Positions 8,101 to 40,089 of a DNA stretch of 46,337 nucleotides are shown in pieces. The DNA is from a virus (Duplodnaviria; Heunggongvirae; Uroviricota; Caudoviricetes). The position numbers and the translations under genes were made by a program. The notes below the pieces were generated by a model. It had not been told where the DNA came from and did not search any database. It saw only the letters and a program-made list of their open reading frames with translations. Positions within the stretch are counted from its first letter, which is position 1. Each line of letters starts with the position of its first letter. The stretch lies in IMG/VR virus record IMGVR_UViG_2740892428_000001, positions 1 through 46,337 of that record; one strand, written 5' to 3'.

Positions 8101-8578
8101 TGGTTTTACCCTTAATGGTGATGTCTTTTTCCGTCACCCAGCCACCGTTACGTTGTATCTGAACCAGCAGGCGGACTTCCGATGGATTCCTGTCCCCCTT
8201 TGAGGTGGTTTCCACCAGTGCCTGCACACCGAAGGTAAAGCGCAGACGGTCGATGTTTGCCGACGTGATGGTGCGGGTGATCGGCGTGTCATATTTCACT
8301 TCCGTACCCAGCACCGTCTCGGAACCGGAGGATTCAAACCCCTCCGGCGGAGTCTGCTCCTGCTCACCGGCCCGGAACACCACCGTGACACCGGCGATGT
8401 TGGTATTCCCTTCACTGTCCAGCACCGGCGTACTGTTCAGCAGCACGCTTTTTAATCCATCCACCGGACCTTCTATCGGCCCTTCGCTGATGGCATCGAT
8501 CACACTCAGTAACTGCGTGGATTTCAGGTTGTCCTTCGCTTCGCGCGGGGTATGCCCCTTATTGCTGCCTTTACCCAT
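5183..8578 (-). CDS. J: tail tip / host specificity protein J
   Basis: 1131 aa; N-terminus [24 protein letters not shown] and overall sequence match lambda J as recalled; position between I and stf. Confidence 0.95.
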
Positions 8579-8638
8579 TCGTCATGCTCCATAAACGACA
8601 AAACCGCCCGCAGGCGGTTTCACATAAAACATTTTGCA

Positions 8639-9310
8639 TCAGCGACCAATCACCACAACCTGACCACCATCCCCTTCGTCTGCCGTGCTGATCTCCTGAG
8701 AAACCACCCGCGACCCCACACGCATTTCACCGTACAGAACAGGCAAAACATTGCCCTGGGCAACCATGTTATCCAGTGAGGAGAAATAGGTGTTCTGCTT
8801 ACCGTTATCCGTTGTCTGTGTGCGGGGAGTTCTGGCTTTCGGTGCCAGCATCTGAGCCACACCGCCGAGCACCATACTGGCACCGAGAGAAAACAGAATG
8901 CCGGTCATACCACCGGCCCCAATGGCTGTCCCCCATGCTGCAAGGGTGGCTCCGGCGGTAAAGAATGATCCGGCAATGGCGGCTGCCCCCAGGACAATCT
9001 GGAATACGCCACCTGACTTGGCCCCGGCGACTCTGGGAACGATATGAATCACAGCGCCGTCAGGCAGAGCCTCATGTAACTGCGCCGTTAATCCGGACGT
9101 GCTGACATCCTGCCCGGCAATACGTACCTGATACCAGCCGTCGCTCAGTTTCTGACGAAACGAAGGGAGCTGTGTGGCCAGCGCCCGGATGGCTTCAGCC
9201 CCCGTTTTCACACGAAGGTCGATGCGGCGGCCAAATCGTTGTAAATCCCCGTAAAGGCAGATGCGTGCCATGCCCGGTGACGCCAGAGGGAGTGTGTGCG
9301 TCGCTGCCAT
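8639..9310 (-). CDS. I: tail tip assembly protein I
   Basis: 223 aa, same length as lambda I; glycine-rich hydrophobic C-terminal half; overlaps the K 3' end as in lambda. Confidence 0.9.
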   Translation of the reverse strand: MAATHTLPLASPGMARICLYGDLQRFGRRIDLRVKTGAEAIRALATQLPSFRQKLSDGWYQVRIAGQDVSTSGLTAQLHEALPDGAVIHIVPRVAGAKSGGVFQIVLGAAAIAGSFFTAGATLAAWGTAIGAGGMTGILFSLGASMVLGGVAQMLAPKARTPRTQTTDNGKQNTYFSSLDNMVAQGNVLPVLYGEMRVGSRVVSQEISTADEGDGGQVVVIGR

Positions 9311-25858: not shown

Positions 25859-26061
25859 ATTTTCACTTTCTTAAATCTAACGACAGACGGCTAACATTTA
25901 AGTATTGTGAAATATTATCAAATGTAATCATCATTGATTTACAAAAGATACATTTTGCCCCGAAAGGATTCCTGTCAGAAACATCAAAAGATGATGTTCT
26001 ATACTGAGAACCATGGCAACACGGGCATCTAAAGTGAATATGGTTTGTAATATTTTCTACC

Positions 26062-26274
26062 TCAAAGTGCCACAACATGAACAGCCGCGGGGCCTTTAGG
26101 TCCGTTCTCAATACCAAATTCGACTTCCTGATTCTCAGTTAACGTTTTGAAATCGTTGCTCTGAATAGCTGAGAAATGGACAAACACATCTTTGCTACCA
26201 TCTTTCGGCGTGATGAAACCAAAACCTTTTTCAGGGTTAAACCATTTCACTAAACCAGTCATTTTGTTAGACAT
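26062..26274 (-). CDS. cspI: cold-shock protein family (CspI-like)
   Basis: 70 aa from [38 protein letters not shown] (RNP1/RNP2 motifs); long AT-rich 5' region upstream as in csp genes. Confidence 0.8.
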
Positions 26275-26637
26275 CATTATTACCTTTTGAAGAAGTTAGC
26301 CCTTGGGCAGAATGGTCCGAAAAAAAATATCAGAGAGAAAAACCAACAAGGAAATCTCAAGAGGTACAAATAATAAAATTATAACAATGACTGCTTCAGA
26401 TAATTTTGTAACAAACCAGAACACCATTAACGCATGATTAACCAACCATAGCAAGGATTACTTTTGTAAAGAAAAACACACGAATGAAACAATAGCTTTA
26501 TTTATTAATAAAACGTGTCATTCTGTCTAATGACCTTTTATCTTACCCTTAAGATTTCAAGGATTTTGACTCATGGAAGAGTCCTTTTTATTTAAATTTC
26601 ACATTCAGCGCTAAAAATAATCCGATTTAATATTAAT

Positions 26638-29234: not shown

Positions 29235-29509
29235 GTGGTGCTTTTTGTGGGAGTCATCCACTTACGCACTTTGTTTTGCTATGCCAGCAGTTAGCTTCTG
29301 CTGTAAAACTATTCATGCAGCAAACCTGCACTTCACCACAATGGTTAGCATACTTTTCCTGATTAAGTTATTGCCAAATATGCTGGCCATTGTTTCATGT
29401 ATTGGACCTCCTTACTATTTATTAAAGAGATCCAATATTCACCACTCTGTCTGTATCTCCACTCAGGCATCAGCCTTCTTCGTTATCGTATACAGACAAA
29501 CTATGAATT

Positions 29510-29725
29510 TTAATCAGTAATTATGACATTTGCTGCTGCAGGACCTTTAGCACCACTCTCTACAGAGAAGGTAACCTTTTGACCTTCAAATAAGGTTCGA
29601 AAATTATCATTCTGAATCGCAGAAAAATGCACAAACACATCTTTACTACCATCAACAGGAGAAATAAAGCCAAAACCTTTATCAGCGTTAAACCATTTTA
29701 CTAAACCAGTCATTTTATTTGACAT
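29510..29725 (-). CDS. cspB: cold-shock protein family (CspB-like)
   Basis: 71 aa [53 protein letters not shown]... Confidence 0.8.
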
Positions 29726-30025
29726 TCTACATTCCTTAACTTGAGCCTTTCGGCATAAATGGCTTGTATAACAGAAACGACTTCGTACTTAATTGGAGAG
29801 ACTCAAAGAAGGAATAAGTGAATAACACCTGAAATGAGAACTGCTTTAGTAAACTACTTCGTATATCGTCTGTTCTTCAAACCGACGCAATCATTAACGC
29901 ATAGTTGAACATATGAAGCAATGTTTATTTTAGACATCCAGCCATCTTCAACCCCATCAAAAAACTATAGCTTTCTTCAGGAAGGTGTGTATAGTGCGCC
30001 CAGTTATCAGTATTAAGGAATTTTT

Positions 30026-36067: not shown

Positions 36068-36288
36068 GCTGCACCTCCGAGATGCTTCATGTTTTTTCCG
36101 GAGCGAAAGGCTATAAGCGGCATACTGACGCGGTAATTACGGCCCAGCGGTTCACAAATCACCTTCTGACATTCACGGTCAACCAGGCTAACACGTAGAA
36201 CATGCCCTGCAGGTGTGGTGTACCACTGACCCGGACGAGGACAACGGAAAGTCTGATTGGTAAACCGTTTGAAAATATTCCGGATCAT
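36064..36288 (-). CDS. hypothetical small protein, translationally coupled on both sides
   Basis: 74 aa; ATGA overlaps with the upstream Rha stop and the downstream initiator start. Confidence 0.35.
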   Translation of the reverse strand: MIRNIFKRFTNQTFRCPRPGQWYTTPAGHVLRVSLVDRECQKVICEPLGRNYRVSMPLIAFRSGKNMKHLGGAA

Positions 36289-37433
36289 TTGCGCCCCCTT
36301 ACCTCTGAAGGGTTCAGCGACAAATTTATGAGGCAGGCCAGCGCCGAAGCATCATTAATATAGTCATACAAGCTAACAGCCAGCGGAGATTCGGCTTTTG
36401 CCAACATAGGATAAAGCTGCTGCAGCCAGACCTGATGAATTGATGAAATGTAGGAATAGAGAACGCTGGCGTTATGTGCAACGTCGCTCGGTACAGGGGG
36501 TTTTGAAAGCTGTTTCTCCATCTGGTTAAAGGCATTGATATATGCCTCTTTGAACTGGGCAGCACGTTTACCCGTGAAACCCATAGCAAGAAACGCAAAG
36601 CCGTCGCGGGTTATTTGATAGCAAGGTAGTTTGCGGCCTGATGCGTCGATGTACTCACTGAGCTGAAAATTCAGCTCAGTAAATTCGGCAGAGCATTCAA
36701 GAGACGCAATTTTTTGAATGACATTTTTGTGTTGTTTGCCGAAATAACTAGCAACAGCCAGAGAAGAAGTAACAACTTTGTCTGCAATAATGCAAAGTTC
36801 AGGTTGTACTAAGGCAGGGATCGTAGCCATGATGGCAGCCTCCGTATGCAATGGATAACTTCCACCACCGGAAACGCCAATTTCGCTGGTGGTGAACTGA
36901 GCAGGGTTGGCGTAACCGGCGCATACGGAAACCGGCGCACCTTTCGGTGCCCCCACCCAGCCCACCATAATTTGGGTATAGCTGAGTTGTAGCAACAAAA
37001 AAGACGCTAACGCGCCAATTGTCGCCGTATGCAATTCCAGGACGCCAATCCCGGCACCCGCTTTATAAGGTGCCTGAACAGTGTAACGTCCCGGAATGGC
37101 AGAATCAATGTGCTGGTGGTCCTTCACACTCAACAAAATCACGCCTGAATTTCCACAAAGGACTAAAGCACTCATGCGGGTAGTCTTTGCGAAGATAGAT
37201 AACGCGCTGTGTTTCTGGTTCCCAACGAATAACATGAACATAAAGCCCTCTTCCGTCACGAAACCAGCGGTTAAGTTCCTGCACAACTCGCCCCCCACAG
37301 TCAGGTAAAGTTCTCTGTGGTTACTTACAGCCAGGTGATTTGGTAATCTGCATTCATGCCGTAACAACAGGTGTTCAGAGACGCTGACCACCAGCTGTTG
37401 CGACAAACGGTTATTTGCCGTTAAACTGTTCAT
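36285..37433 (-). CDS. Rha-family phage regulatory protein; long ORF whose N-terminal ~200 codons are of uncertain coding status
   Basis: The C-terminal 182 aa (from MATIPALVQPELCIIADKVVTSSLAVASYFGKQHKNVIQKI, internal ATG at 36830 with a GGAGG RBS) is Rha-like; the frame stays open up to an ATG at 37433 that overlaps the YdaT-like stop. Confidence 0.45.
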   Translation of the reverse strand: MNSLTANNRLSQQLVVSVSEHLLLRHECRLPNHLAVSNHRELYLTVGGELCRNLTAGFVTEEGFMFMLFVGNQKHSALSIFAKTTRMSALVLCGNSGVILLSVKDHQHIDSAIPGRYTVQAPYKAGAGIGVLELHTATIGALASFLLLQLSYTQIMVGWVGAPKGAPVSVCAGYANPAQFTTSEIGVSGGGSYPLHTEAAIMATIPALVQPELCIIADKVVTSSLAVASYFGKQHKNVIQKIASLECSAEFTELNFQLSEYIDASGRKLPCYQITRDGFAFLAMGFTGKRAAQFKEAYINAFNQMEKQLSKPPVPSDVAHNASVLYSYISSIHQVWLQQLYPMLAKAESPLAVSLYDYINDASALACLINLSLNPSEVRGRK

Positions 37434-37981
37434 GCGTTAGTTTCTCCACAGACACAAAACGCCACGACGCCCGGAGCTGCACACTCGCGGGCGTCACTCT
37501 TTTCTGGAGCGCAAAAGATTTTGTAGACCAGTGCTGCATGCTCCTGGAGCTTCGAAATTGACAGATACAACTCATCATTAATTGCTGTCTGCTCGTGTGG
37601 CTCCACTACCCCATCTTCGATTGCCGAACGAATCTGTTTTGAGTAACTCCCGATCTGTTCGATGACTTCCAGCAGGCGCTGGTTTATATCGGCGTTCTCA
37701 ACTTCCTCAATGTCAGGAAGCGATACAAACACCCCACCTGCAGACTGTGCGACAGCATCCGCAATGTAGTGAGTGCCAGCCGCGCGCTGTAAAATCATTG
37801 CCCATCCCAGCGGGAAAATCTGATTGCCATCTGCACGAAGGCGGTTGAATAAAGCGTTCTCTGTTACATCCAGCCACTCAGCAGCTTCAGCGTAACCCCC
37901 CGGCAACGCCGCGATAGTTTTTCTGACAGCTTTCACGTACCACTCAGGCTGTTTTTCCACTTTCCAGTGATGCTTACCCAC
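37430..37981 (-). CDS. YdaT-like protein (candidate CII-type regulator)
   Basis: 183 aa immediately downstream of the cro-like gene; resembles YdaT proteins of E. coli cryptic prophages as recalled. Confidence 0.45.
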   Translation of the reverse strand: MGKHHWKVEKQPEWYVKAVRKTIAALPGGYAEAAEWLDVTENALFNRLRADGNQIFPLGWAMILQRAAGTHYIADAVAQSAGGVFVSLPDIEEVENADINQRLLEVIEQIGSYSKQIRSAIEDGVVEPHEQTAINDELYLSISKLQEHAALVYKIFCAPEKSDARECAAPGVVAFCVCGETNA

Positions 37982-38234
37982 GGCTTACCTCCTGTTCCTG
38001 TGGTTTAAACCCATTCTGGTTTTGGCTAGATTGAAAACGTGCCGGATAAAGAATCTGCATTTCGCTGATTTCACCCTTAAAAAAATTGGCCAGACGCTCT
38101 GCAAGATCGATAGATGGAATTTGTTCCAGTCTCTCAATACGACTCAGCGTTGCTGGATTAACCTGAACGCCCGCAGCAACATGCTGCAAAGTAAACCCGT
38201 GCGCCTTACGCACATTTCGTAATGGTGATTGCAT
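37974..38234 (-). CDS. cro: Cro-like XRE-family HTH regulator
   Basis: 86 aa; HTH (GFTLQHVAAGVQVNPATLSRIERLEQ); divergent from cI; GGAGG RBS 5 nt upstream of the ATG. Confidence 0.75.
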   Translation of the reverse strand: MQSPLRNVRKAHGFTLQHVAAGVQVNPATLSRIERLEQIPSIDLAERLANFFKGEISEMQILYPARFQSSQNQNGFKPQEQEVSRG

Positions 38235-38331: not shown

Positions 38332-39024
38332 ATGAACATAGGAAACCGAGTCAGACAACTTCGCCAGGCGAAGAACATGAAAATCGCCGATCTCGCTGAA
38401 GCAATAGGAGTGGATGCGGCGAATATCTCGCGCCTGGAAACAGGTAAGCAGAAACAATTCACTGAACAAGCCCTGAGTAATATTGCCAGGAGCTTAGGTG
38501 TTGATATTGCTGATCTCTTTACCTCAGACGTCAAAAGTAATACTGTATGTAAAAACAGTATTGGTGAGGATGTTGCGCAGGTGAAGGATGTATTCCGTAT
38601 TGAAATGCTGGATGTCAGTGCCAGTGCGGGAAATGGCCTTATCCAGGGCGGTGATGTCATTGATGTGATTCATGCCATTGAATACAGAACTGATAATGCT
38701 GTATCGATGTTTGGCGGACGACCAGCCAATCACATTAAAGTTATCAACGTTCGTGGGGACAGTATGTGTCCAACCATTGAGCCAGGAGATCTCATCTTCG
38801 TTGATGTCAGTATCAATCAGTTTGATGGAGATGGTATCTATGTATTTGGTTTTGATGATAAAATTTATGTCAAACGACTGCAAATGATACCTGACAAACT
38901 ACTGGTGATATCTGATAACCAGATTTACCGTGAATGGGGAATTACCAGCGAAAATGAACACCGGTTTATGGTCTTTGGAAAGGTCTTAATCAGCCAGTCA
39001 CAAACCCTTAAACGACACAATTAA
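38332..39024 (+). CDS. cI: CI-like repressor (N-terminal XRE HTH, C-terminal S24 LexA-like peptidase domain)
   Basis: 230 aa; HTH (MKIADLAEAIGVDAANISRLETGKQ); C-terminal GDSMCPTIEPGDLIFVD...KIYVKRL with the Ser and Lys of the S24 autocleavage dyad. Confidence 0.9.
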   Translation: MNIGNRVRQLRQAKNMKIADLAEAIGVDAANISRLETGKQKQFTEQALSNIARSLGVDIADLFTSDVKSNTVCKNSIGEDVAQVKDVFRIEMLDVSASAGNGLIQGGDVIDVIHAIEYRTDNAVSMFGGRPANHIKVINVRGDSMCPTIEPGDLIFVDVSINQFDGDGIYVFGFDDKIYVKRLQMIPDKLLVISDNQIYREWGITSENEHRFMVFGKVLISQSQTLKRHN

Positions 39025-39044
39025 CCCTTACTTCCTCATCAATT

Positions 39045-39070
39045 AGCCACCCGAAGGTGGCTTTTCATTA
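39045..39070 (+). terminator. intrinsic terminator after cI
   Basis: AGCCACC-cgaa-GGTGGCT followed by TTTTCATT, 21 nt after the cI stop. Confidence 0.6.
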
Positions 39071-39078
39071 CCCATCAA

Positions 39079-39132
39079 ATTGCATATCTCGCAATAAAAA
39101 CACTTGCATAATGCGCAACTTCATTTTATCTT
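39079..39132 (+). promoter_or_regulatory. OL-like operators and pL-like promoter
   Basis: Two 17-bp dyads ATTGCATATCTCGCAAT (39079-39095) and CTTGCATAATGCGCAAC (39103-39119) fit TTGC-N7-GCAA; -35 TTGCAT (39104-39109) and -10 TATCTT (39127-39132) on the + strand. Confidence 0.5.
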
Positions 39133-39533
39133 TCTTTCCAGACCAACAAACAAGGTACTAACAAAATTTGGTTGTAACACGGCGTATGGCACATGCGTCG
39201 TTAGCGGTCTGGGGACGTTAAAGGGGACAATCCACTCCTTGCTCGGGCAAACAAACCAGGTAGCCGGAATGTGCAAGTCAATGATGATGCTGATAAGACG
39301 CCTAACCAGCGCGGCGATCCGGTTTGACGCCTGGGAAGAGACCAGGGTGCAACGATGAGGGCATTTATGGAACCGCGACAAAGTGTGGTGCCGTAACTGG
39401 CTAAGTGCTCTCAGCGTTGTGGTAATCCGCGAAATGGCGCGGCGGTAAGTATGGCGGGGTTACTCTTTCCCCGTTGAGGACACCGGATTGTCAGGTTGAC
39501 CATACGCCTGAGTGACAACCCCACCACAACAGC

Positions 39534-39580
39534 CACTGCTTTGGCGGTACCAGTTTGTACACTTGCTTCCGGCTGGTACC
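39534..39580 (+). terminator. terminator-like hairpin inside the early-left leader
   Basis: Perfect 10-bp stem GCGGTACCAG/CTGGTACCGC (39534-39543 with 39563-39572), 19-nt loop, then TCTTTTTA. Confidence 0.4.
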
Positions 39581-39581
39581 G

Positions 39582-39666
39582 CTCTTTTTACAAAACAGAG
39601 AAGAGCATCACCGGACGACGGGCTCATAACCCAATCCATCCGGGCGGCTGCCACCGCAGGTGTTCT
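39582..39666 (+). other. 85-nt multi-branched stem-loop element (candidate cis-regulatory RNA or sRNA)
   Basis: 13-bp closing stem AAAACAGAGAAGA/TCTTCTCTGTTTT enclosing GC-rich sub-hairpins (GCGG-ctgcca-CCGC); lies about 60 nt upstream of the first early-left ATG. Confidence 0.3.
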
Positions 39667-39726
39667 TCTCTGTTTTGTGGAGAAACCAACCGGCCTTGCA
39701 GGGTCGATATGATGAGGAGCAGCAAA

Positions 39727-40089
39727 ATGGCTAGCGAACGCAGTACTGATGTGCAGGCATTTATCGGGGAGCTGGACGGCGGCGTATTTGAAACCAAAAT
39801 CGGCGCAGTTCTCAGTGAAGTCGCTTCCGGTGTGATGAACACGAAAACCAAAGGTAAGGTCTCGCTCAACCTGGAAATCGAACCGTTTGATGAGAACCGT
39901 GTGAAAATCAAGCACAAACTCTCATATGTTCGCCCGACTAACCGCGGGAAAATTTCCGAAGAAGACACCACCGAAACGCCGATGTATGTCAATCGCGGTG
40001 GTCGCCTGACTATTCTGCAGGAAGACCAGGGACAATTACTGACTCTTGCCGGTGAACCTGACGGAAAACTCCGCGCAGCAGGTCATTAA
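39727..40089 (+). CDS. hypothetical early protein (YfdP-like, 120 aa)
   Basis: ATG with a GAGGAG RBS 7 nt upstream; the six-frame ORF extends upstream (39496) through the structured leader, which I discount. Confidence 0.5.
   Translation: MASERSTDVQAFIGELDGGVFETKIGAVLSEVASGVMNTKTKGKVSLNLEIEPFDENRVKIKHKLSYVRPTNRGKISEEDTTETPMYVNRGGRLTILQEDQGQLLTLAGEPDGKLRAAGH

Follow-up and report, generated by a model that had tools for sequence, protein, structure and literature searches.

Introduction

DicF is among the oldest bacterial small RNAs known, and to our knowledge nothing has been catalogued beyond its 53-nt core. RNase III sites occur in the lambda N leader and between the T7 early cistrons. The put RNA of phage HK022 acts against both pausing and termination and has its binding site on the beta' zinc-binding domain of RNA polymerase.

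In K-12, DicF exists as a 190-nt species with an RNase III-dependent 5' end and as a 53-nt species that depends on RNase E, and the transcript ending at dicF is a major species (PMC10448788). A 72-nt species has a 3' end made by RNase III, and the DicF 5' seed is used for xylR (PMC5069750). The put elements of HK022 are about 70 nt long, form two stem-loops, begin at +1 to +3 of the transcript and are present in two copies (PMC9378689).

Here we describe the early-left leader of a tailed phage (Caudoviricetes), contained in a stretch of 46,337 nucleotides (the window; IMG/VR record IMGVR_UViG_2740892428_000001). We propose, with a probability of roughly 0.65, that pL and the first early-left gene are separated here not by a single regulatory leader but by an inserted polycistronic array of non-coding RNA modules.

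Results

The leader upstream of yfdP is structured and non-coding

RefSeq annotates no gene between the S24 repressor gene (38332-39024) and yfdP (39727-40089). The following elements were recognised across this interval:

39045-39070, + strand: intrinsic terminator 3' of the cI-like repressor gene, AGCCACC-CGAA-GGTGGCT then a T-run (terminator scan)
39080-94 and 39104-18, strand not applicable: OL-type operator palindromes TTGCATATCTCGCAA and TTGCATAATGCGCAA, respectively (repeat search)
39104-39132, + strand: putative pL, -35 TTGCAT at 39104-09, 17-nt spacer, -10 TATCTT at 39127-32 (by eye)
~39140-39726, + strand: leader modules, between the putative pL and yfdP
39166-39347, + strand: segA, conserved pseudoknotted RNA of ~170 nt (21-sequence alignment, covariation)
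39180-39200, + strand: segA hairpin Ha
39205-12 / 39256-66, + strand: segA long-range helix
39266-77, + strand: segA invariant unpaired GGAAUGUGCAAG
~39280-97, + strand: segA variable hairpin
39298-39312, + strand: segA hairpin Hc; pseudoknot made by its loop (39304-07) with 39321-24
39330-46, + strand: segA hairpin Hd, with a GAAGAGA loop
39348-39421, + strand: Px1, candidate processing stem of ~17 bp (putative RNase III site), 5' strand UGCAACGAUGAGGGCAU at 39348-64, 3' strand GUGCUCUCAGCGUUGUG at 39405-21, variable insert 39365-39404
39416-39530, + strand: segB, four-way-junction cassette matching the 5' domain of long DicF, with P1 (39416-23 / 39523-30), H1 (39427-42), P2 and H2 (39443-85) and H3 (39486-39521)
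39531-39589, + strand: DicF-like 3' module, spacer 39531-42, 13-pair hairpin 39543-55 / 39571-83, then C and UUUUU to 39589
39589-39679, + strand: Px2/segD, 21-bp stem (39589-39609 / 39659-39679) closing a three-way junction with a conserved hairpin (39611-39643) and a variable hairpin (39644-57)
39680-39729, + strand: yfdP 5' UTR, hairpin 39691-39706, Shine-Dalgarno GAGGAG 39714-19, ATG 39727 (sequence, identical RefSeq locus, fold)

Both operator palindromes conform to TTGC-N7-GCAA, a motif that is also present in the cI-cro intergenic region (38297-311), and this sharing supports the placement of a predicted OL/pL just upstream of the leader. The putative pL matches 8 of 12 promoter positions, and in a simple promoter scan requiring 9/12 no site there reached the threshold. 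Transcription from it would be expected to start near 39139-39141. In homologues with a different immunity region, similarity was lost upstream of 39160. An earlier first-pass annotation of this DNA had held that the leader takes the place of nutL and N in lambda; indeed, it lies between OL/pL-type elements and the first early-left gene.

The leader was also described there as GC-rich with many hairpins, which proved to be the case. Its G+C content is 0.54-0.575 over 39200-39700 compared with 0.38-0.46 in the flanks, and the minimum free energy of the 595-nt leader was -229.7 kcal/mol against -199.8 +/- 7.1 for shuffled sequences (z = -4.2), none of 100 shuffles being equally stable. Folding of the minus strand gave z = -3.7, and the covarying helices described below contain G-U pairs consistent with a + strand RNA. 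Rfam, searched with the whole window at the gathering threshold and with the leader at E <= 10, returned nothing relevant; the AgvB, AsxR, STnc100 and DicF models had no match in the window, nor did ARAGORN or the Rfam tRNA model detect a tRNA or tmRNA in it. This Rfam search had been proposed in the first-pass annotation together with a test for covariation across homologues, which revealed compensatory pairs in segA, Px1 and Px2 and modest covariation in segB.

The leader is non-coding, as that annotation had concluded from the lack of a convincing ORF. Substitutions relative to homologues 82-90% identical showed no codon periodicity in the leader (p = 0.24-0.72) and hence no conserved protein-coding frame, and indels of 1-2 nt were frequent in the alignments, while third-position bias was strong in the flanking genes yfdP and cI (p = 2e-7 to 7e-3). 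It might still be argued that the leader encodes one or more small proteins, such as the 25-codon AUGAUGAUG frame at 39280 or minus-strand ORFs, given the presence of mechanical ORFs of 26-151 codons and of hypothetical proteins annotated over the leader in the mEp460 and cdtI records. We find this hardly credible: periodicity is absent, the common indels shift the frame, none of the mechanical ORFs matched a Pfam family, the hairpin containing the AUGAUGAUG stretch differs between homologues in both length and sequence, and the conservation of the leader is accounted for by compensatory base-pair changes. ORFs annotated over it in some phage records are spurious.

segA is a conserved pseudoknotted RNA

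We aligned 21 segA sequences, which represent several types of phage and no fewer than 12 genera of enterobacteria. In the consensus, 96.7% of cells were paired and 14 of the 30 pairs had changed on both sides; this was equalled by none of 500 shuffles, and slid controls were 29-42% paired. Several stretches of 6-12 nt are invariant and unpaired. The segA of the window had no Rfam 15 covariance-model match at E <= 10, and no Rfam match was found at E <= 0.1 for its homologues in P1, D6, a phiV10-like phage, SPN1S, mEp390 and Kp4866-6. A literature search by segA and segB motif sequence strings also retrieved nothing relevant. segA is therefore the novel part of the leader and lies outside the catalogued families; with strong covariation that includes a pseudoknot, it is a new RNA motif ready for biochemistry.

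Homologues of segA occur in lambdoid, P1-like and epsilon15-like phages, often with adjacent tRNA genes; at the majority of genome loci carrying segA, no tRNA is adjacent. It is promoter-proximal both in the window phage and in epsilon15-like phages, directly 3' of tRNA(CAU) in P1 and D6, and elsewhere immediately 5' of a tRNA or of ban. Since segA travels as an independent RNA gene beside tRNAs, our best guess is that it is a stable trans-acting RNA. A bolder proposal, which we advance tentatively and consider possible with the odds against it, is that segA is the founder of an undescribed class of ornate pseudoknotted RNAs of Enterobacterales temperate phages that have a biochemical activity of their own and reside in cassette arrays. 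If so, this activity might be the binding of RNA polymerase or another protein, ligand sensing or catalysis, and the RNA would share its arrays, which RNase III stems subdivide, with tRNA genes and DicF-type sRNAs.

segB and the terminator module correspond to the K-12 dicF locus

Over 39416-39538 the window was 89% identical to the K-12 Qin prophage just 5' of dicF, where the segB counterpart lies directly 5' of the Rfam DicF match. segB was also about 75% identical to a region of the P1 ban-operon leader labelled 'dicF-like' by P1's annotators. In its consensus fold 94.5% of cells were paired, and 0 of 500 shuffles were as good. Six pairs had changed on both sides among 13 sequences, a modest covariation that we attribute to the strong conservation of the segB sequence itself. 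Folded alone, segB was no more stable than shuffled sequences (z = -0.6). It invariably lies directly 5' of a terminator.

The hairpin of the adjoining module folds with -21.2 kcal/mol (z = -5.0), is framed by GGCGG/CCGCC and is followed by U5. The first-pass annotation had reported a perfect 10-bp stem plus U-tract at 39534-39580; the stem exists, about 9 nt away, as a hairpin at 39543-39583 with 13 pairs, G-U included, and UUUUU at 39585-39589. Pairwise alignment matched the module to the 3' half of K-12 DicF (UUUGGCGGUAyCAGUUU ... CCGC.CUUUUU), with a 19-nt gap in the window that removes the single-stranded 5' seed UUUCUGGUGACG of DicF. Additionally, the ftsZ-pairing loop of DicF (...UUUUACUCCGUGACUG...) is replaced by UUUGUACACUUGCUUCCGG. 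The Rfam DicF model (RF00039; gathering threshold 48 bits), which scores K-12 at 76.7 bits, gave no match in 38950-39850 at E <= 10. Since the 5' seed is absent and the loop is different, this variant sRNA would be expected to have targets other than those of DicF.

The arrangement of the locus is nevertheless that of K-12 dicBF in Qin: the early promoter is under repressor control and is followed by a processing stem, segB, a terminator hairpin with a U-run, a domain closed by a long stem and then the first gene downstream. A conserved structured domain of about 130 nt (segB) thus lies directly 5' of the sRNA in a repressor-controlled early operon, as at the long DicF locus. The suggestion of the first-pass annotation that the region might encode an sRNA was therefore essentially right, 39416-39589 matching the 5' domain of the 190-nt long DicF plus its terminator. 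The two loci differ at their edges. K-12 has three small ORFs (ydfA, ydfB and ydfC) and only a remnant where the window has segA, and the domain after the terminator differs in sequence, the K-12 version being STnc100-like.

Behind the constant segB, at least eight alternative modules were found in IMG/VR contigs; segB shows no change to match the free variation of spacer and terminator. The locus thus shows the DicF core to be an exchangeable 3' end. The larger conserved unit to which it belongs comprises the processing stem, a domain built on a four-way junction and a variable seed/hairpin/terminator module, and the number of alternative modules suggests that the DicF-like regulators of prophages may form a family whose members differ in their targets. 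We also considered the Pas sRNAs of a 2026 preprint, which map close to Q and the lysis genes in the late region and not to this leader.

Two long stems flank the segB cassette

The Px1 duplex was predicted at -25.3 kcal/mol, compared with -10.8 +/- 2.7 with shuffled partners, and compensatory changes preserve it in 17 of the 23 homologues taken as representatives; its K-12 equivalent has -32.1 kcal/mol. Px1 corresponds in position to the K-12 site of the RNase III-made 5' end of the 190-nt DicF (PMC10448788), and that length sets the 5' end within the 3' strand of K-12 Px1. By analogy, Px1 would be an RNase III site. The GUUGUG at the end of its 3' strand overlaps the 5' strand of P1, the closing stem of segB. 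As a partner for the K-12 5' RNase III site we also tried GAGCGCAC, located after DicF, but the upstream 5' strand of Px1 fits better and is conserved elsewhere.

Px2/segD folds with -47.5 kcal/mol (z = -6.75). The first-pass annotation had noted here an 85-nt element closed by a 13-bp stem; the element is real, with coordinates 39589-39679 and closure by 21 consecutive pairs. The stem is kept through compensatory changes in Citrobacter, Klebsiella, Kosakonia and Phytobacter homologues, its strands are related in sequence to those of Px1, and it sits just 5' of the yfdP ribosome-binding site. K-12 has an analogous 21-bp stem immediately 3' of DicF, and the extra 19 nt of the 72-nt DicF bring its 3' end into the 5' strand of that stem. 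Px2 is thus a candidate for a second RNase III site, which would part the RNAs from the yfdP mRNA. Double-stranded stems suitable as RNase III substrates are therefore present at both places, the enzymology being taken from K-12. The lambda N leader and the T7 early cistrons offer a likeness in their long conserved double-stranded stems, which follow RNA elements close to pL and stand ahead of the ribosome-binding site of the first early gene. In contrast to those systems, the present locus has two related stems that flank non-coding RNA cassettes, and cleavage of stems of this kind has been demonstrated only in the K-12 homologue.

The modules are distributed differently

Among 5,426 complete E. 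coli genomes, 1,003 have the full leader and 4,740 at least a part of it, mostly segB alone, the sub-segments being distributed differently. On this basis the leader reads as a patchwork of four conserved + strand RNA modules, namely segA, Px1, segB with the hairpin and U-run, and Px2/segD. The mosaic make-up, the link to DicF, the RNase III-type stems and the pseudoknotted segA had not figured in the first-pass annotation.

In the phiV10-like phage the modules form a stand-alone unit of promoter/operator, segA, Px1, tRNA-Arg and DicF-like terminator. Both there and in SPN1S, tRNA-Arg(UCU) stands exactly at the cassette position, after the same GUGCUCUCAGCGUUGUG junction. The gene following the phiV10-like array is unrelated to YfdP, and we therefore rejected the array plus yfdP as a conserved unit. 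The P1 ban-operon leader likewise has segB and a terminator directly after a C1-controlled promoter, and segA directly after tRNA-Ile. However, in P1 the modules are split and in reverse order, with segB and the terminator first and segA 2.3 kb further on, just before ban, and stems of the Px1/Px2 type seen in the window are missing beside segA.

Discussion

The results presented above show a non-coding leader whose structures are conserved and covary, and which has counterparts in the K-12 dicF locus, the P1 ban leader and the phiV10-like operon. They suggest the following model for an array of RNA modules. On loss of the repressor, transcription from pL would yield segA first, as a pseudoknotted RNA of about 170 nt, followed by Px1, the segB four-way-junction cassette and the DicF-type hairpin with its U-run. 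Some polymerases would halt at this terminator, producing a long DicF-like RNA of about 175 nt and reducing transcription into yfdP, yfdQ, yfdR and yfdS; those reading through would transcribe the 21-bp Px2 and then the yfdP ribosome-binding site. Cleavage of Px1 and Px2 by RNase III would separate a segA RNA, a segB-plus-hairpin RNA and an mRNA with a short 5' UTR. The cut in Px1 would free a GUUGUGG 5' end to pair with CCACAAC and close segB, and RNase E may trim the spacer to leave a short hairpin RNA. We infer the cleavage sites and RNA ends by homology from K-12 experiments at matching sites, and partial termination and all trans-acting functions are likewise our inference. GUUGUG is claimed by both Px1 and P1, and the sequence in which folding and cleavage would take place is therefore a model. 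Given the intrinsic terminator in the leader, early-left transcription is plausibly subject to some attenuation, in keeping with one of the options raised in the first-pass annotation.

Another of those options was a put-like antiterminator, which the analysis did not support. In this reading segA or segB would be a cis-acting RNA that binds elongating RNA polymerase, replaces the missing N and permits read-through of the DicF-like and later terminators. As the annotation had observed, no N-like protein is evident: the five ORFs 3' of the leader encode YfdP (no Pfam match), a DUF2303 protein, an HD phosphohydrolase and two DUF551 proteins, so that no N-family gene comes first after pL, nor is there a boxA-boxB nut site. 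Among boxA candidates, the boxA-like CGCUCUUUUUACAA at 39580-93 reads CGCCCUUUUUACAC in homologues, CGCUCUUUUU at the terminator differs in homologues, and UGCUCU/UGCUCUU in the Px 3' strands varies through compensatory changes. Like the absence of an N-like protein, several features speak for such a role: the leader terminator precedes the early genes, segA is near the promoter here and in epsilon15-like phages, and segB is always immediately 5' of a terminator. HK022 putL/putR likewise provides a structured RNA just 3' of pL in an N-less lambdoid phage, with a terminator further downstream, and a 2025 paper speculates on a put-like RNA in related N-less lambdoid phages with yfdP, yfdQ and yfdR (PMC12315714). 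However, when the HK022 putL sequence, taken from the genome via residue numbers in PMC9378689, was compared with the window, the best matches were 9-11-mers at chance frequency. A shared 9-mer in segB, GCGCGGCGG, is a chance match, equalled or bettered by dozens of others across the window, and lies in a different structural context. The leader contains no putL/putR-like pair of stem-loops (~70 nt, with conserved U28, G35 and G45), and BLAST of the leader against the whole window found no second copy on the pR side. Moreover, segA of P1 is located 3' of the DicF-like terminator, segB can be replaced by other modules or by a true tRNA with the terminator retained, and the transcript ending at dicF is a major K-12 species (PMC10448788). 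In the stand-alone phiV10-like operon and with the order found in P1, the same modules could not act as a pL leader; a put-like role is thus unsupported and we consider it unlikely, the modules behaving instead as mobile RNA genes.

Two further readings are distinctly improbable. Either segA or the segB junction could be the aptamer of a riboswitch or conformational switch, in which the pairing of GUUGUG in Px1 or in P1, or formation of the terminator, tunes processing or read-through. The segA pseudoknot and invariant unpaired stretches are typical of a ligand-binding or tertiary fold, Px1 and P1 are both conserved and mutually exclusive, and segB followed by a terminator resembles an aptamer with its expression platform. 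Against this, segB stays constant whatever spacer and terminator follow it, a variable insert and the cassette separate segA from any terminator, segA is also found directly 5' of a tRNA or of ban, and no Rfam riboswitch matched. Equally doubtful is a tRNA-operon relic or tRNA mimic, in which a tRNA gene, led by segA and terminated by the DicF-like hairpin, originally occupied the cassette site, and the tRNA-shaped segB is processed as a tRNA or serves as a decoy. This would fit the tRNA-Arg(UCU) at the cassette position in the phiV10-like phage and SPN1S, the location of segA immediately after tRNA(CAU) in P1 and D6, and the four-way junction of segB with its 8-bp closing stem. However, the arms of segB do not have tRNA dimensions, its loops and absent CCA end are unlike tRNA, ARAGORN and the Rfam tRNA model were silent, and most segA loci have no adjacent tRNA; the K-12 5' end, furthermore, depends on RNase III and not on RNase P (PMC10448788).

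If the array model is correct and the leader terminator is efficient, the downstream early genes would need an antitermination that this model lacks. Early-left expression in N-less lambdoid phages is now testable in terms of one terminator, two processing stems and two structured RNAs. The leader, unannotated in RefSeq at the locus checked, is present in about 1,000 of 5,426 E. coli genomes, with some part of it in about 4,700.

Finally, we noted a second structured phage RNA in the window, the C4/IsrK module known from P1/P7 immI and the Gifsy prophages, at 36885-37073 on the minus strand, on the pR side. In neither sequence nor structure is this module related to those of the pL leader, and the C4 and IsrK families are already in Rfam.

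A non-coding, structured leader

The window is a lambdoid prophage of E. coli. Across the region queried, 39050-39760, it matches E. coli O111:H8 strain SF4-1 at 100% identity; phages mEp460, cdtI and Ayreon and several Stx2c phages are close relatives. The features in and around the pL leader (39140-39726) are:

37974-38234, - strand: cro-like gene
38332-39024, + strand: S24/HTH repressor gene
39045-62: terminator after the repressor gene
39080-94 and 39104-18: two TTGC-N7-GCAA operators, matching one in the cI-cro intergenic region
Between the operators and yfdP, about 590 nt: no annotated gene
39543-83: terminator-like hairpin, with U5 at 39585-89 (z = -5.0)
39589-39679: segD, a stem-closed element closed by 21 bp (z = -6.75)
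39727-40089: yfdP, directly after the unannotated stretch
3' of yfdP, in order: yfdQ (DUF2303), HD phosphohydrolase, two DUF551 genes

RefSeq also places an 'anti-phage dCTP deaminase' in this early-left operon, a few genes further on (window about 43350 onward; 8302-8711 in comparison stretch L001).

Substitutions in the leader relative to homologues of 82-90% identity had no codon periodicity (p = 0.24-0.72), unlike those in yfdP and cI, where the same analysis gave a strong third-position bias. Indels of 1-2 nt were frequent in the alignments, and leader ORFs had no family match in Pfam. These results bear out the first-pass annotation, which had reported no convincing ORF here, and a protein-coding leader is effectively excluded. 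The G+C content of 0.54-0.575, against about 0.40 in the flanks, and a fold with z = -4.2 relative to shuffled sequence likewise agree with its description of a G+C-rich, highly structured region. The hairpin with a U-tract and the stem-closed element that it listed are both real, but had been placed a few bases off.

A conserved pseudoknotted RNA, segA

Sequence from the leader's 5' part (39166-39415) recurs in P1 and D6, immediately 3' of a tRNA(CAU) gene; in a phiV10-like phage and SPN1S, immediately 5' of tRNA-Arg(UCU); and in the pL leaders of mEp390 and Kp4866-6. With each bacterial species represented by a single genome, a motif scan for segA, the conserved module at 39180-39346 (+ strand), picked up 21 loci in 12 named genera (Escherichia, Citrobacter, Klebsiella, Enterobacter, Kosakonia, Kluyvera, Phytobacter, Buttiauxella, Pseudocitrobacter, Pseudescherichia, Superficieibacter and Erwinia). 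A copy of typical enterobacterial type on a 1.75-kb contig of a MAG labelled Bacillota (L148) is probably a binning or contamination artefact.

The structure proposed from 21 non-redundant sequences comprises five helices and a pseudoknot. In the alignment 96.7% of positions are paired, and in 14 of 30 pairs both partners have changed; no shuffle out of 500 did as well, and slid controls reached 29-42%. At the variable pair of the pseudoknot, 17 sequences have C-G and 4 have A-U, a clean switch. Long unpaired stretches that are invariant (GGAAUGUGCAAG, AGCGGUC, GGCGA and GAAGAG) point to putative tertiary contacts or a bound partner. Rfam returned no family for segA in any phage homologue tested, and a literature search with its sequence strings found nothing. 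segA is a well-supported structured RNA absent from Rfam 15; that it represents a new functional RNA class is a tentative proposal.

In P1, segA is directly followed by CCUGAUUUUCUGGUGAUGAC (L006 about 2700-2730, just upstream of ban), a close sequence match to the 5' seed of the sRNA DicF (AAUUUUCUGGUGACG); in this phage, therefore, 2.3 kb separate the seed-like sequence from the DicF-like terminator.

A variant of the DicF locus

Megablast found the full leader in 1,003 of 5,426 complete E. coli genomes, and at least some part of it, mostly one sub-segment alone, in 4,740. The sub-segments differ in distribution and, judged from these matches, the leader has a mosaic make-up. In K-12 the counterpart of the widespread segment, 39416-39522/38, is found in the Qin prophage between ydfC and dicB, where it lies directly upstream of, and adjoins, the Rfam DicF match. 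In K-12, the 5' end of the 53-nt form of DicF is made by RNase E and that of the stable 190-nt form requires RNase III (PMC10448788), which also makes the 3' end of a 72-nt form (PMC5069750). The cassette segB (39416-39530) is the counterpart of the extra 137 nt in the 190-nt form, with 89% identity between window and K-12. The window hairpin and U-run align with the 3' half of DicF, but the 19 nt holding its 5' seed are absent and the loop differs, which explains why the Rfam DicF model had no match in the leader. This part of the leader is a new variant of the DicF locus already known from K-12, and the earlier suggestion that the region encodes an sRNA appears to hold.

segB folds as a four-way junction, with closing stem P1 (GUUGUGG/CCACAAC), hairpin H1, stem P2 carrying H2, and H3. 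Stem P1 and H3 carry compensatory changes, and unrelated hairpins take the place of H2 in different lineages; the consensus pairs 94.5% of cells, with two-sided changes at 6 pairs. Searching IMG/VR with two segB motifs as anchors gave more than 120 stretches, in which a nearly constant segB precedes at least eight different spacer-hairpin-U-run modules, canonical DicF being the commonest and the window type second. In phage P1, segB and a terminator immediately follow the C1-controlled ban promoter, at a site annotated 'dicF-like region'. At least four cassette types share the GUUGUGG/CCACAAC ends.

Between these same ends, in the exact position of segB, mEp460 (L003 3370-3500) has a different structured cassette (UGAAUGCGCAGGCUGAUGCGC ... 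CCGGAGAUCAGCACCGGUCACCACAAC), also seen in several genomes (L138, L144 and L147). Sub-threshold STnc100 matches (33-40 bits; gathering score 47) occurred in K-12 Qin (L002 3182-3391), P1 (L006 1571-1690) and L131 (548-668). The K-12 match covers the stem-closed domain after DicF; the others lie in ban-operon regions, of P1 and D6. STnc100 has been linked to PasD sRNAs (2026 preprint), and the domains matched here may likewise belong to the leader's cassette system.

Putative processing stems and a model for the pL transcript

The segA tail (RCAAC..GAGRGCAUU) pairs with bases just before segB (AGUGCUCU...CGUUGUG), forming Px1 (39348-64/39405-21), a duplex of about 17 bp that encloses a variable insert. 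Of 23 representative homologues, 17 have this stem, with many compensatory changes; its energy ranges from -22 to -32 kcal/mol, compared with about -10 when the partners are shuffled. In K-12 the segA core is degenerate and the Px1 equivalent is kept at -32 kcal/mol; the length of the 190-nt DicF places its RNase III-dependent 5' end within the 3' strand of this stem. Px2, the 21-bp stem closing segD, is related to Px1 in sequence (ACAACAG.AAGAGCAU / GUGCUCUU..GUUGUG) and shows covariation between genera. In K-12, DicF is followed at once by an analogous stem, likewise of 21 bp; the 5' strand of that stem contains the 3' end of the 72-nt species. Since the Px1 3' strand ends in GUUGUG, which also forms the 5' strand of stem P1, cleavage of Px1 would free these bases to close segB. 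Other genomes contain longer arrays of several such units; neither the recurrence of Px stems nor the cassette architecture was found in the searchable literature.

The first hairpin of segD (39611-39643; CCGGRCGACGGGCUCAUWACCCAAUCCAYCCGG) shows almost no variation from Escherichia to Kosakonia and its neighbour varies freely, which suggests a candidate specific binding site.

In the phiV10-like phage, parts of the leader form an operon of their own: a TTGACA promoter overlapped by an operator, then segA, Px1 and tRNA-Arg, and at the end a DicF-like terminator. This marks the modules as mobile RNA genes rather than a leader bound to the early-left mRNA. We favour a model, at a probability of about 0.65, whereby the pL transcript is an array of RNA genes, partly terminated and cut by RNase III at Px1 and Px2. 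Partial termination would occur at 39589, RNase III would act as it does at the matching K-12 sites, and additional trimming by RNase E is possible; this would yield segA RNA, a long DicF-like RNA of new target specificity and yfdP mRNA. The leader's non-coding status, conservation, covariation and homology are direct observations, and we infer trans-acting roles for its RNAs. Dense structure would limit Rho loading on long untranslated RNA.

The first-pass annotation had proposed, as one possibility, a put-like antitermination or attenuation element. No N-like protein was found among the first five early-left genes, which favours this proposal, and speculation about put in phages of this kind appears in a 2025 paper. 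However, similarity to putL of HK022 is no better than chance, there is no pR-side copy, and neither the module order in P1 nor the swapping of cassettes fits it well, so that put-like antitermination is improbable. Marginally less probable still, and rated alike, are two possible sub-hypotheses, namely that the leader contains a riboswitch or conformational switch, or a tRNA-derived cassette.

Other RNA elements in the prophage

On the pR side, matches to C4 antisense RNA (80.7 bits) and IsrK (61.2 bits) at 36885-37073 (- strand) fall within a 382-codon ORF (36285-37433) that RefSeq gives as a single 'Rha family phage regulatory protein'. Its N-terminal half probably corresponds to a c4/isrK RNA module like that of P1 immI; in that case the antirepressor would really start further downstream, and the pR side, too, would carry RNA genes (about 570 nt). 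Finally, two matches to the cspA thermoregulator family, at 26016-26432 and 29447-29886 (- strand; 109.8 and 156.5 bits), are prophage-borne cold-shock genes with structured 5' UTRs.
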